Notes under the pieces: model-generated | What the model was told of the DNA's origin: nothing | The model's input: only the letters and a program-made list of their open reading frames with translations | Databases searched by the model: none | In this document: positions 1,279 through 52,281 of the stretch, piece by piece | How positions within the stretch are numbered: the stretch's first letter is position 1 | Layout of the letters: every line of letters begins with the position of its first letter | Assembly (NCBI GenBank): GCA_964627825.1 | Contig: CAZVLJ010000002.1 | Location: 26,381-90,380, forward strand | Length of the DNA: 64,000 nucleotides | Source of the DNA: an uncultured Rikenella sp. | GTDB lineage: Bacteria > Bacteroidota > Bacteroidia > Bacteroidales > VadinHA17 | Direction of reading: 5' to 3' | Program-made: the position numbers and the translations under genes

Positions 1279-3012
1279 TTACTCGAAATCCAGGTTAAAG
1301 GTCTTCTTCAGATCTTTAAGCGCGGGATTCCCTGCTGCCAGGTGGTTAAACTTCTGCTCGGGTGAATAGAGTATCTCCCCCCTTTCTGTTGCCTCAACAA
1401 TTGTCTGAAGACTAATCTGGCTGTTTTGCAGTGTGCGGCGGAGATGGCCTTCCATCCTGGGCTTGAAATTATGATCGAACGCCTCTTTCAGGGCTGAATT
1501 GTCGAGCCGGAGTACAACTGTCCTGTCAGGGAGCAGTTCGGGTGACACTGATGACAGGGTGACGGCAATCCTCGGGCTTTCCTCTTGTACTTCAGTGGCG
1601 AATGAGACCCATGCTTTCAGCAGATCATCGCCGGTAAAATCAATATCTTCCCCCTGTGCAGATAACTCACCGGCAGGCTCATTCAAAGTGTCTCCGGCAG
1701 CTTTTGAGCCTGCCATGATCTCTCTGATTGATACTTTTCGTGTTTCCTCCCGTGAGGGTATGGTTTTATGAGGGGCAGCGGCAGTGGACTGCTGGTCAGC
1801 CACTGGTGTTGATTGCTTCGTGGCAGCGGGAGAGCGGGCCGGTGGTGCAACAGTGAACTCCTGCTCATCATCCTGAGGTGCAGGTTCAGCTTTTTTTTTT
1901 GACTCCTCCGGGCGCCTTTCTTCAGAAAGGTTGCACATGCGCAGCAGTGCCAGCTCAACATGCAATCGTTGATTTTTGCTGCTGCGGAAGTTGAGCATGC
2001 ACTGTGATCCTATGTCCAGTGCCTCATATATGAAGGTCAGCCGTGCCTTTATGGCCTGCTCGCGGTAGCGTAGCCTGATAGACGGAGATGTCTCCAGCAG
2101 TTTAACCGTGGATTCATCGCGACTAACAAGCAGGTCACGCAGGTGATTGTTCAGGCCTGCCATGAAGTTGTAGCCATCAAATCCTTTGTTTAGTATCTCG
2201 TTGAAGGTAAGCAGTGCCGAGGCTACATCCCCTTCTATGGCTGCCGATGTAATACGGAAGTAGTACTCATAGTCAAGTACATTAAGATTGGCAATGACAT
2301 CAGCATAGGCAATATTTTTACCGCTGAAGCTCACTATCTGATCAAAGATGGAGAGTGCGTCGCGCATTGCTCCGTCAGCCTTGGTAGCGATCACGTGCAA
2401 TGCCTCATGTTCTGCATTCACGCCCTCATTGCCGGCAACAAACGTGAGTCGCTGAACTATATCATCAACATTGATCCGGTTGAAGTCAAATATCTGACAC
2501 CGTGAAAGGATAGTGGGGATGATCTTGTGCTTTTCGGTTGTTGCCAGTATGAAGATAGCGTGTGCAGGGGGTTCTTCCAGTGTCTTCAGGAAGGCGTTGA
2601 AAGCCTGCGTAGAGAGCATATGTACCTCATCAATGATATAGACGCTGAATTTTCCGACCTGTGGAGGTATCCTTACCTGGTCAGTCAGGTTACGTATGTC
2701 GTCAACACTGTTGTTTGAGGCTGCGTCAAGCTCATGGATATTGAATGATGCCTGGGAGTTGAATGACCTGCATGACTCGCATTTGTCACATGCTTCACCG
2801 TCAGGGCCCGGTTCGGAGCAGTTGATTGTTTTGGCAAAGATCCTGGCACAGGTGGTTTTGCCAACTCCTCTCGGACCGCAGAAGAGGTAGGCCTGTGCCA
2901 GAAGGTTGTTCCTGATGGCATTTTTCAGTGTAGTGGTTATGGTATCCTGCCCCACGACCATGTCAAAAGTGGCAGGTCTGTATTTGCGTGCAGAAACAAT
3001 AAAGTTATCCAT
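1279..3012 (-). CDS. dnaX: DNA polymerase III subunit tau (gamma/tau)
   Basis: 577 aa. Walker A GPRGVGKTT, Cys-rich Zn module (CSEPGPDGEACDKCESC), Walker B YIIDEVHML, SRC motif LSRCQ, Pro/Ala/Gln-rich linker, then a tau-type C-terminus. Confidence 0.96.
   Translation of the reverse strand: MDNFIVSARKYRPATFDMVVGQDTITTTLKNAIRNNLLAQAYLFCGPRGVGKTTCARIFAKTINCSEPGPDGEACDKCESCRSFNSQASFNIHELDAASNNSVDDIRNLTDQVRIPPQVGKFSVYIIDEVHMLSTQAFNAFLKTLEEPPAHAIFILATTEKHKIIPTILSRCQIFDFNRINVDDIVQRLTFVAGNEGVNAEHEALHVIATKADGAMRDALSIFDQIVSFSGKNIAYADVIANLNVLDYEYYFRITSAAIEGDVASALLTFNEILNKGFDGYNFMAGLNNHLRDLLVSRDESTVKLLETSPSIRLRYREQAIKARLTFIYEALDIGSQCMLNFRSSKNQRLHVELALLRMCNLSEERRPEESKKKAEPAPQDDEQEFTVAPPARSPAATKQSTPVADQQSTAAAPHKTIPSREETRKVSIREIMAGSKAAGDTLNEPAGELSAQGEDIDFTGDDLLKAWVSFATEVQEESPRIAVTLSSVSPELLPDRTVVLRLDNSALKEAFDHNFKPRMEGHLRRTLQNSQISLQTIVEATERGEILYSPEQKFNHLAAGNPALKDLKKTFNLDFE
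1886..1910 (-). promoter_or_regulatory. Candidate -1 frameshift / transcriptional slippage site in dnaX (A10 run, upstream GGAGG, -1-frame UGA)
   Basis: The coding strand reads CGGAGGAG UCA AAA AAA AAA GCU GAA (T10 on the plus strand at 1891..1900). The -1 frame reads AAA AAA AAA AGC UGA, with the stop at 1888..1886. Confidence 0.5.
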
Positions 3013-3097
3013 TGATGGTTTTTACAGTGTATTTAGATATCAATCACAAATATAGTCAAATAGTTTTCGGAATATTTTTTTTTAATATTAAATGTCT

Positions 3098-8896: not shown

Positions 8897-9838
8897 ATGA
8901 AGATATCCCATGAGGTAAAGGTCGGAGCCGTTGCACTGATCACCATCATTGCATTTATACTCATGTTTGAGTTTCTCAAGGGCACTGCACTCTTTACCAG
9001 CACTGACACGTATCATATTGTTTATGACAACATTGCCGGGCTGACAGAGTCGAACCCTGTTGAGATCAACGGATACCAGGCAGGCGTTGTCCAGGATGTG
9101 AAGCTGATAAATGACGGCTCAGGACGTATCCTGGTGTCACTGTCAGTTGACAAACATTTCAATATTCCAAAAGACACGAAGGCGGAGATAACAACAGCAA
9201 CCCTGATAGCAGGGATGAAGATCATTCTCCGAATGGGCGGGAGCACTGAGATGTGCCATGACCATGACACCATCTCAGGTTACGTGGCAACCTCTATTCT
9301 TGACAGGTTAAGTTCAACTGTCGCACCGCTTGAGGATAATATTACAAATATAATTCTCAAGCTTGATTCAGTGATTTCGGCACTGAATGATATATTCACT
9401 CCCGGCATGACGGCTGAAATCAGGTCAACCATGGCCAACGTCAACTCTGTCACAGCAAGCCTTAAAGAAGTATCAACCAACAGCAAGGATGAGCTGATTT
9501 CATCCATTGAGGACCTGCAGTCTTTCACTGCCATGCTTTCTGCCAACAGCGAAACGCTTGATTCCACCCTTCAGAACATAAGCAGCATCTCAGATGCAAT
9601 AGCTGCTGCTGACCTGGGAACAACCCTCGGCTCTCTCAGGTCCTCTCTGACCAACCTTGACGATATAGTCAAAGGCATCAGCCAGGGGGAAGGAACGGCC
9701 GGAAAGTTTATCGCCAACGACAGTCTCTACACAAATCTCAGCAATACCCTCTTTAATCTGGACATGTTACTTCGAGACATGAAGGAAAATCCGAAGAAAT
9801 ATGTCCATTTCTCACTTTTCGGCAAAAAGCAGGAATGA
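8897..9838 (+). CDS. MlaD/MCE family protein
   Basis: MKISHEVKVGAVALITIIAFILMF TM anchor, then an MCE domain (YHIVYDNIAGLTESNPVEINGYQAGVVQDV), then a helical C-terminus. Confidence 0.8.
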   Translation: MKISHEVKVGAVALITIIAFILMFEFLKGTALFTSTDTYHIVYDNIAGLTESNPVEINGYQAGVVQDVKLINDGSGRILVSLSVDKHFNIPKDTKAEITTATLIAGMKIILRMGGSTEMCHDHDTISGYVATSILDRLSSTVAPLEDNITNIILKLDSVISALNDIFTPGMTAEIRSTMANVNSVTASLKEVSTNSKDELISSIEDLQSFTAMLSANSETLDSTLQNISSISDAIAAADLGTTLGSLRSSLTNLDDIVKGISQGEGTAGKFIANDSLYTNLSNTLFNLDMLLRDMKENPKKYVHFSLFGKKQE

Positions 9839-10161
9839 TTTGCTTCAATAATACAAAACCTCTATGCTTCAGTGCATTAACTGTTGTTTTTAGCTTCCGG
9901 GAGGTATAAGGAATATCCGGACCATCATATCCTCATCTTCATAACTTTCTGTAACACATTGCTTTTTTTGTATAGTACTGATTATTTGTTAGTTATAAAT
10001 TTTGATGAATGTTCCCTGTTTTAAGGACCTGATGGTCATAACAGTAAAGAATAAATGTAAAAGTCAATAGAAAAAAATTTTTTTTTTTACCTTTTTTTTT
10101 ACAAATATTGTCCCGGGTTTCAGCACCAGATAAAATAAGCGAGTTTTTAATTTTAATCTGA

Positions 10162-11592
10162 ATGAACAAGTCACACGATGAGGTTTGGAATAACTGTCTG
10201 GAAATAATTCGTGACATTATTCCTTCGGCCAGCTTTAAAACCTGGTTTGAGCCTATTGTTCCTCTCAGGCTCGACAAGAACATTCTTACAATACAGGTGC
10301 CCAGCCCTTTCTTTTACGAATATCTTGAAGAGCAGTACATAGATATCCTGCGCAAGACGCTGAGGCGGGAGATTGGCAATGATGCCAAGCTTGAGTACAA
10401 CATCATAATGGAGAACTCGGGCTACACCAATGGCAAACCGTATACTGTCCGTTATCCTTCGAGGAACAAGGCTGATCTGCAGAACAAGCCAATGCAGGTT
10501 CCCTTCGAGGTGACTCAGCCGGCCATCAGGAATCCTTTCATTATTCCGGGTATAAAGAAGCTTCATTTTGATCCGAGGCTTAATCCTGATTATTCATTTA
10601 ACAATTTTGTTGAGGGTGAATGCAATCGTCTTGCCCGTTCTGCAGGTATTGCGGTAGGGAGCAATCCTGGCGGCACAGCCTTCAATCCCCTGATGATCTA
10701 TGGTGATTCAGGTCTCGGCAAGACTCATCTGGTTCAGGCCATTGGTATCCTTGTCAAGGAGAAGTTTCCTGACAAGACTGTTCTTTATGTCAATGCCAAC
10801 AAGTTCCAGACACAGTTTGTTGAATCTATCCGCAATAACAACAAGAATGATTTTCTCCATTTTTATCAGATGATTGATGTTCTGATCATTGATGACGTAC
10901 ATGAGTTTGCCGGGAAGGAGAAGACACAGGACACTTTCTTTCACATTTTCAACCATCTCCATCAGTCGGGCAAACAGCTCATCCTGACCTGTGACAAGCC
11001 GCCGGTAGAGTTGCAGGGTATGGAGCAGCGGCTTCTGTCTCGTTTCAAGTGGGGTCTGCTGGCAGACCTTCAGAAGCCCGATTATGAGACCAGGCTTGCC
11101 ATTCTCAGGAAGAAGGCCTACAATGACGGCATTGAGTTGCCCGATGAGATCTTCGAATTTCTTGCAGAGAATATATCCTCGAATATAAGGGAGCTTGAAT
11201 CTGGGCTTATCTCCCTGTATGCCCAGAGCACCCTTAACCGTAAGGAGGTGACCCTTGAGCTGGCACGCCAGATGGTAGACAGGCTGGTGAACACTCAGCG
11301 CAGGGAGATAACTATTGATTATATACAGAAGGTGGTCTGTGAATACTACAAGATCCCCGTGGAGCAGATGCAGGGCAAGACCCGCAAGAGAGAGATAGTT
11401 CAGGCAAGGCAGGTTTCCATGTATTTCTCAAAGAACCTTACAAAGGCATCACTGGCCAGCATCGGATCCATGATCGGGGGCAAGGACCACGCCACCGTGC
11501 TCCATGCCTGCAAGACCGTGAACAACCTCATTGACACTGACAGGCATTTCAGGAGCCAGATACTGGAGATAGAAAAGAAACTCAAGGTATGA
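10162..11592 (+). CDS. dnaA: Chromosomal replication initiator DnaA
   Basis: 476 aa. Walker A GDSGLGKTHL, Walker B VLIIDDVHE, C-terminal DNA-binding domain (REIVQARQVSMYFSKNLT..GGKDHATVLHACKTV). Confidence 0.97.
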   Translation: MNKSHDEVWNNCLEIIRDIIPSASFKTWFEPIVPLRLDKNILTIQVPSPFFYEYLEEQYIDILRKTLRREIGNDAKLEYNIIMENSGYTNGKPYTVRYPSRNKADLQNKPMQVPFEVTQPAIRNPFIIPGIKKLHFDPRLNPDYSFNNFVEGECNRLARSAGIAVGSNPGGTAFNPLMIYGDSGLGKTHLVQAIGILVKEKFPDKTVLYVNANKFQTQFVESIRNNNKNDFLHFYQMIDVLIIDDVHEFAGKEKTQDTFFHIFNHLHQSGKQLILTCDKPPVELQGMEQRLLSRFKWGLLADLQKPDYETRLAILRKKAYNDGIELPDEIFEFLAENISSNIRELESGLISLYAQSTLNRKEVTLELARQMVDRLVNTQRREITIDYIQKVVCEYYKIPVEQMQGKTRKREIVQARQVSMYFSKNLTKASLASIGSMIGGKDHATVLHACKTVNNLIDTDRHFRSQILEIEKKLKV

Positions 11593-52248: not shown

Positions 52249-52281
52249 AAAAAAAAAGCTGCATACCTGCAGCTTCTTTTT
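52249..52281. terminator. Bidirectional rho-independent terminator (A9-AAGCTGCA-tacc-TGCAGCTT-CTTTTT)
   Basis: 8-bp stem flanked by an A-run and a T-run, between convergent lysA and the small membrane protein gene. Confidence 0.8.

Follow-up and report, generated by a model that had tools for sequence, protein, structure and literature searches.

The dnaX gene of the 64,000-nucleotide stretch analyzed here (the window), which comes from an uncultured Rikenella sp., contains a run of ten adenines (A10) at the point where the coding sequence of the clamp-loader core ends. We propose that this run is a selected tau/gamma recoding site, by which one gene would give both the full-length tau subunit and a shortened, gamma-like subunit, and that it works mainly by programmed transcriptional slippage of the type known in Thermus. 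From the sequence comparisons described below, we give this reading a probability of about 0.6. The first-pass annotation had singled out the run as a candidate tau/gamma site, acting through a −1 shift of the ribosome or through an additional A inserted during transcription, and its proposal was strengthened by the finding that the run, its length and an out-of-frame stop are conserved at synonymous positions in related genes.

The identity of the gene was clear. In a profile search, its product matched the NCBIfam equivalog NF011531 with 803.7 bits (cut-off 685), and Pfam recognized the AAA+ module, the lid and domain III (PF12169), the last with a match ending at amino acid 373. Tau is encoded by a single uninterrupted open reading frame (ORF) of 577 codons, and the gene is not split at the DNA level. 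Numbering from the start at position 3012, codon 371 is TCA (1902..1900), codons 372–374 are three AAA, codon 375 is GCT and codon 376 is GAA. Direct reading of the minus strand gave CGGAGGAGTC (1910..1901) directly before the A10 and GCTGAA after it; around the site the strand reads CGGAGGAGTC AAAAAAAAAA GCTGAACCTG. In the −1 frame the sequence becomes AAA AAA AAA AGC TGA, with the stop at 1888..1886. All the coordinates previously assigned to the run (1900..1891), to codons 371–376, to the −1-frame AGC UGA and to a 375-amino acid product proved to be right, by direct reading and by simulation.

Simulated transcripts with other run lengths gave three outcomes. An mRNA with eleven A's (A11) encoded a product of 375 amino acids and 42.0 kDa with the end ..EESKKKS, whereas an A13 mRNA encoded tau with one additional lysine. 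The A9 and A12 mRNAs encoded products of 442/443 amino acids, of about 50 kDa and with an out-of-frame tail of 68 residues. The truncation point of the A11 product is located just beyond domain III, approximately 65% along the gene, in agreement with the earlier claim that the stop falls right after the clamp-loader core. The shortened product is predicted to be essentially this core, AAA+ domains I–III, because the domain III match ends at residue 373 and because residues 4–360 of the protein align with residues 3–357 of the Escherichia coli gamma subunit. The latter was crystallized as a 373-residue chain (1JR3).

The main support for the proposal came from the comparison with relatives. Among the 120 best database homologs of the protein (71–100% identity), the KKK at the site was invariant in 120/120 while the residues on either side varied. 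At the nucleotide level we compared 80 dnaX loci from species-representative genomes (50–91% identity), with labels that include Bacteroidales, Paludibacter, Marinifilum, Pedobacter, Parapedobacter luteus DSM 22899 and Chitinophaga. This alignment of orthologs, a check proposed with the original annotation, showed a run of A9–A14 at the same place in 68 intact genes: A10 in 60 of them, A11 in four, A9 in three and A14 in one. The position of the run relative to the codons was not constant (35 loci had it in phase 2, 30 in phase 1 and three in phase 0). In phase 2, the first A was given by TCA, GCA, ATA, CTA, TTA, GTA, CCA or ACA, that is, by eight codons for seven amino acids that were always NNA, although in the window NNA makes up only 6% of the leucine, 11% of the proline and 20% of the valine codons. 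After the run, an NNT codon followed by GAN was found in 56 of the 66 distinct phase-2 contexts, and an alanine codon in this place was GCT every time, as compared with 19% of the alanine codons of the window. The T of NNT or GCT before GAN is what creates the −1-frame UGA. As judged from these comparisons, the constraint at the site is on the nucleotides and not on the amino acids, since the wobble A is fixed across seven amino acids and alanine is always GCT. In 21 aligned relatives, the A10 followed by G(C/T)TGA was the only invariant block of the linker.

The out-of-frame stops were enriched in both alternative frames. A −1-frame stop was present within one codon of the run in 74% of the 68 loci and within five codons in 97%; for all other positions in these genes, the figures were 16% and 41%, respectively. 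In the +1 frame, 91% of the loci had a stop within 12 codons, against 51% for the null positions, with a median distance of 5 codons against 12. The sequences that follow the run differed by lineage (GCTGA, GCCTGA, TGACATAAG, CTTAA and GCCCTGA), and the fact that such stops are reached through different sequences points to a maintained function rather than to shared ancestry alone. One locus, L036, had an in-frame A14 at 2614-2627 (T-K-K-K-K-K-S), followed one codon later by a −1 stop; so long a run is unusual in an essential gene. The cultured carrier Parapedobacter luteus DSM 22899 (L073) had a single ORF and an A10, the −1 stop coming after 2 codons and the +1 stop after 5.

The window has 49% G+C, and AAA represents 41% of the lysine codons in its long ORFs. 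It contains five homopolymers of at least nine bases: the T10 of the dnaX site, one T11 and three 9-base runs. The four others (3075-3083, upstream of dnaX, 10078-10088, 10092-10100 and 52249-52257) are all outside the ORFs listed nearby, leaving the dnaX A10 as the sole homopolymer of this size inside a long ORF in 64 kb. Taken alone, this uniqueness is suggestive of a non-chance origin; it is the conservation at the nucleotide level in relatives that decides the matter, and the run is not due to chance. Separately, the plus strand shows a T11, ACC and T9 succession at 10078-10100, in the gap between an ORF ending at 9838 and an ORF starting at 10162; these homopolymers rank with the longest of the window and may be a promoter or untranslated region element, or a slippage-prone leader.

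One alternative is that no programmed recoding takes place, the run being kept for the Lys-Lys-Lys patch or for another reason, with truncated products as noise and gamma made otherwise, for example by proteolysis as in Caulobacter, where this route is known. The invariance of KKK in the protein and the absence of the run in some Bacteroidota are consistent with it. It leaves unexplained the exclusive use of AAA, which represents 41–59% of the lysine codons elsewhere, as well as the fixed wobble A before the run, the GCT or NNT before GAN that produces UGA, and the excess of stops found in each of the other two frames; moreover, long coding A-runs are otherwise avoided in the window. We consider this alternative very unlikely.

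In the mechanism that we propose, RNA polymerase transcribing the T10 template would realign the rA:dT hybrid and generate a mixed population of mRNAs. The A10 mRNAs, and the A13 mRNAs with one more lysine, would be translated into the 577-amino acid tau. On the A11 mRNAs, the UGA at 1888..1886 would come into frame one codon past the run, giving a 375-amino acid gamma-like subunit made of AAA+ domains I–III only and devoid of the linker and of the conserved C-terminal tau domain. The A9 and A12 mRNAs would enter the remaining frame, where translation is predicted to stop after a few codons in most relatives and after the 68-residue tail in the present species. From the pattern of conservation we infer that RNA polymerase slips at the A10 and that gamma accumulates, in some ratio to tau.

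RNA polymerase is favored over the ribosome as the slipping machine because the genes keep ten A's although seven would be enough for a ribosomal heptamer, because the run is found in any codon phase and because stops are present in both other frames. In many bacteria, selection against A/T runs in coding sequences starts at about 9 nucleotides and has been attributed to slippage (PMC1088944); the A10 of the window gene (codons 371–374) reaches this length and lies in coding sequence, past the part that encodes the clamp-loader core. The transcriptional route is also favored by the lack of conserved frameshift stimulators and by the properties of the host ribosomes, as those of Bacteroidia sequester the anti-Shine-Dalgarno sequence and are unresponsive to Shine-Dalgarno (SD) sequences (PMC7797042, PMC9976891, PMC13000453).

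The search for stimulators covered both sides of the run. A modest hairpin had been described 3' of it; this hairpin was weakly predicted, but the 161-nucleotide region around the site folded no better than shuffled sequences (z = +1.22), and RNAalifold found 0 consensus pairs across 21 relatives. The 50-mer downstream of the run had a folding energy of −7.5 kcal/mol, compared with −7.7 kcal/mol for gene-internal controls. A scan of positions 1600..2200 against Rfam with E <= 10 returned only chance-level matches and no DnaX frameshift element. A second hairpin located upstream of the run (1915-1930) was considered as a signal and rejected, as it was not conserved in the 21 relatives by RNAalifold and is probably incidental. 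The possibility that the T10 serves as an antisense terminator was also rejected, the terminator and promoter scan having found nothing there on either strand. No tRNA-Lys was found by a tRNA scan of the window. The features of the site and of the gene are collected in Table 1.

Table 1. Position of the dnaX gene, of the A10 run and of the associated elements in the window.
Feature	Position	Strand	Remarks
dnaX ORF	1279..3012	minus	577 amino acids, 64.2 kDa; zero-frame product is full-length tau
A10 homopolymer (template T10), proposed slippage site	1891..1900	minus	third base of codon 371, then codons 372-374 (S-K-K-K)
−1-frame terminator AGC UGA	1886..1891	minus	ends the predicted gamma-like product; in frame on the A11 mRNA
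+1-frame read-through tail	1683..1890	minus	68 residues after KKK; ends at TGA 1685..1683
tau-only part	1279..1890	minus	variable Pro/Ala/Gln-rich linker and conserved C-terminal domain; missing from the predicted shortened product
GGAGG, SD-like	1905..1909	minus	part of Pro-Glu-Glu codons; not a conserved element
weak hairpin GAA CCUGC ... GCAGG AG UUC	1855..1887	minus	predicted; neither significant nor conserved
hairpin CCUUUC-UGAA-GAAAGG, perfect 6 bp	1915-1930	minus	14 nucleotides upstream of the A-run, in codons N-L-S-E-E-R

Several points weigh against transcriptional slippage as the main mechanism. First, slippage of a Bacteroidota RNA polymerase on an A10 is here a prediction from sequence. 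Second, the A10 always holds an in-phase A_AAA_AAN heptamer, and a −1 slippage of the ribosome would yield the same protein, so that the two routes are inseparable by sequence alone. Third, the +1-frame stop of the window gene is 69 codons off (TGA 1685..1683) while the −1 stop comes after one codon, and such a distant stop fits a −1-only shift or the insertion of one A better than a broad length heterogeneity. Fourth, SD cores were enriched upstream of the run: in the interval 2–18 nucleotides before it (L001–L080), the 4-mer core was found in 43% of the loci and the 5-mer in 19%, compared with 14% and 2.5%, respectively, elsewhere in the genes. Fifth, about 9–12 of the 80 loci are without any run, which implies that gamma made by this route is dispensable in some lineages.

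The enrichment of SD cores is most likely a by-product of coding. The residues upstream of the run are Glu-Glu or Glu-Asp, and by our own count GAGG or AGGA is present in one half of the possible synonymous GAR-GAR pairs. For this reason the SD core was rejected as a real stimulator, the enrichment being a probable effect of the Glu-Glu codons. The GGAGG reported by the first-pass annotation is present in the window but, at the frequencies given above, not conserved, and its supposed role as an SD-type stimulator does not hold. A role of the SD core may exist in a subpopulation of ribosomes without bS21.

The +1 frame of the window gene had been described as open for more than 70 codons, with the rapid stop specific to the −1 frame. 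The frame is indeed long, at 69 codons slightly shorter than stated, and the specificity holds only for this species and its nearest relatives. A distant +1 stop was also found in three close relatives (44 codons in L001, 69 in both L112 and L114), whereas in most relatives the +1-frame stop is located 2–12 codons past the run. Either the A9 and A12 transcripts are rare, the insertion of one A dominating, or a product of about 50 kDa is tolerated.

The most serious competitor is a shift made by the ribosome at the same recoding site, through −1 tandem slippage of tRNA-Lys or sliding on poly(A), with no dedicated stimulators and with the same ..KKKS product. Whatever its phase, an A10 contains an in-phase A_AAA_AAN heptamer, and the lineages with a phase-1 run have A_AAA_AAG, one codon and UGA, which is the E. 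coli layout. On its own, the dnaX heptamer of E. coli causes approximately 14–16% frameshifting in vitro (10.1101/2025.10.02.679949), and in the window the nearby stop is in the −1 frame only. Such a shift does not account for the preservation of exactly ten A's when seven are enough, including a wobble A that the heptamer of codons 372–374 does not need, nor for the +1-frame stop kept in most relatives, which a pure −1 shift does not require. In addition, the in-phase heptamer of the window is A_AAA_AAA, in contrast to the A_AAA_AAG of the phase-1 relatives, and in E. coli the latter is far more shift-prone (PMC5009743). With no conserved 5' or 3' stimulator and an SD pairing that Bacteroidia ribosomes do not use, we regard a mainly ribosomal shift as rather unlikely, but ribosomal slippage on the same run may contribute alongside transcriptional slippage.

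The run length was also stable in DNA, which bears on a further alternative, namely a contingency locus in which replication slippage would toggle the gene between A10, with tau intact, and A9 or A11, with a gamma-only ORF. The run lies within a 30-mer, GGAGGAGTC-A(n)-GCTGAACCTGC. The pattern used for the metagenome scan accepted any run of at least nine A's. The run was an A10 in 42 of the 43 metagenomic dnaX matches, and the single A9 lies 19 nucleotides from a contig end. The exact DnaX protein of the window was found on 10 contigs. By exact-sequence look-up among approximately 15 billion proteins, none of the A9, A11, A12 and A13 products of the window gene was found and the A10 protein was the sole version recorded, a result that concerns assemblies and not reads and is uninformative on RNA. 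The stability of the A10 in DNA implies that any length heterogeneity must arise after replication.

Two species-representative metagenome-assembled genomes (MAGs), L027:2613-2621 and L064:2613-2621, carry an A9 that splits dnaX into two ORFs; in these the zero frame stops after 11 (L027) and 91 (L064) codons, with the C-terminal part of tau encoded further on in the −1 frame. They speak for a contingency locus, as do the two-ORF dnaX genes of other classes. Both MAGs come from one project, whose MAGs we take to be long-read Nanopore assemblies, in which homopolymer errors are to be expected, and the two A9 are probably such errors; the alternative is a genuine, reversed two-ORF dnaX within the Bacteroidales. 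Tau is described as essential, which, together with the stable run length, led us to reject DNA phase variation; the probability left to it is extremely small. On the practical side, the A10 is a spot at which this essential gene will be broken up or cut short in long-read assemblies and by gene callers.

Regarding the loci without a run, eight of them (L048, L052, L055, L056, L057, L067, L069 and L080) had neither an A-run nor a classical heptamer at the domain III boundary. Among them is what appears to be a group of related loci sharing an LLQLCALSGG motif, and one is labelled Lentimicrobiaceae. In these lineages the site would have been lost or never acquired, and their dnaX genes either make tau only or make gamma in some other way.

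In the part of the protein that is specific to tau, amino acids 428–577 showed many invariant columns in the homolog alignment. The dnaX stop codon is followed, after 10 nucleotides, by the gene of a short soluble HisKA/HATPase histidine kinase of 262 amino acids; on the minus strand, the segment 81-1268 encodes this kinase and then a receiver-only response regulator (121 amino acids), both apparently co-transcribed with dnaX. On the upstream side, a divergent group comprises rpsF-rpsR-rplI, then a RidA-family gene and the gene of an LptD_2 protein. These neighboring genes have no bearing on the A10 site.

Recoding at a poly-A run in dnaX is already known in Thermus and predicted in related phyla, and the present site, judged by its conservation, is real, probably functional and of a kind that specialists would expect. 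The closest published counterparts are those of Antonov et al. (2013), the only report found in the literature on dnaX with Bacteroidetes, Bacteroides or Flavobacterium. Their dnaX cluster has 17 two-ORF genes, nine of them with ten A's (PMC3711429, Suppl. Fig. S3), and the A10 genes belong to Chlorobium, Pelodictyon, Prosthecochloris, Flavobacterium johnsoniae, F. psychrophilum, Cytophaga hutchinsonii, Capnocytophaga and Coraliomargarita. In that report these genes were attributed to transcriptional realignment, gamma being the zero-frame product (PMC3711429). The window gene, from the same phylum-level group, shares with them a run of about ten A's where gamma and tau diverge, with a sequence of the G(C/T)T..TGA type after it, and the published F. 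johnsoniae context, the A-run followed by GTTGAGCA, matches L010 and L019. The roles are reversed: there the gene is split and tau needs the recoding event, whereas here, as in 66 of the 68 loci with a run, the zero frame encodes tau and gamma would need the event. As GeneTack, the program used in that work, detects frame-broken genes only (PMC3711429), it sees only the split form, which explains why the single-ORF form went unreported there. Cases of the truncation type were explicitly left out by Baranov et al. (2005) (PMC1088944), and no description of the single-ORF poly-A dnaX, the majority form in our sample, was found in the literature. Atkins et al. (2016) noted that changing one nucleotide can be enough to exchange the dnaX product that depends on recoding (PMC5009743).

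These data also allow a wider reading, which we put forward tentatively and at somewhat less than even odds. The Bacteroidota, whose ribosomes are unable to use SD-type stimulators, may rely phylum-wide on an ancient transcriptional slippage at A10 to produce a minimal gamma of domains I–III. Lineages would differ only in the product that is templated, tau in Bacteroidia and Sphingobacteriia, or gamma in the published Flavobacteriia, Cytophagia and Chlorobi, and the lost +1 stop would add a third DnaX form, of 50 kDa, in the present species. If true, a single homologous site would offer a natural series of role reversals. Provided that the site works in the way proposed here, very many Bacteroidota, among them abundant Bacteroidales of gut, digesters and sediments, would have a dnaX that encodes two clamp-loader subunits where annotation shows one, and a large, well-sampled clade would join the few cases in which the production of tau and gamma is understood. 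It would also support a selection for having both forms, since the means of making them would have been preserved or re-invented. The phylum could serve as a comparative system for slippage versus frameshifting with SD-blind ribosomes, and for the way in which a one-nucleotide change swaps the "standard" dnaX product.

Gamma is produced by three established routes: ribosomal frameshifting in E. coli, transcriptional slippage in Thermus and proteolysis in Caulobacter. With E. coli dnaX, the window gene has in common the gene itself, the outcome of tau and a truncated gamma (here predicted), an A-rich shift site in lysine codons and a −1-frame UGA one codon past the site. This last feature is the part of the E. 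coli layout, as invoked by the first-pass annotation, that was retained; the SD element and the stem-loop did not hold, and A_AAA_AAG was seen in the phase-1 relatives but not in the window. The window gene differs from that of E. coli by the absence of a conserved SD-like element or stem-loop and of an Rfam match, by its heptamer (A_AAA_AAA instead of A_AAA_AAG) and by its SD-blind host ribosomes. The positions differ as well. The A10 aligns at about residue 370 of E. coli DnaX, in which the shift site is located near residue 430, and gamma would here be without the residues by which E. coli gamma extends past domain III.

The resemblance to Thermus is closer. Transcriptional slippage in the dnaX gene of T. 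thermophilus was reportedly described by Larsen et al. in 2000. In that gene an A9 run leads to mRNAs of variable length, and gamma is produced from every length other than 9+3n (PMC1088944, PMC5009743). The window gene departs from this model by its A10 in place of A9, by the location of the site directly after domain III, approximately 65% through the gene, and by the +1-frame stop 69 codons off. In both cases tau is encoded by a single ORF with an A-run in the coding sequence, no stimulators are needed, and non-templated A's bring a nearby out-of-frame stop into use to make gamma, as predicted here from the sequence. The likeness to Thermus claimed at the outset was borne out most clearly by the relatives, since most of those in the Bacteroidota combine the A-run with close stops in both alternative frames.

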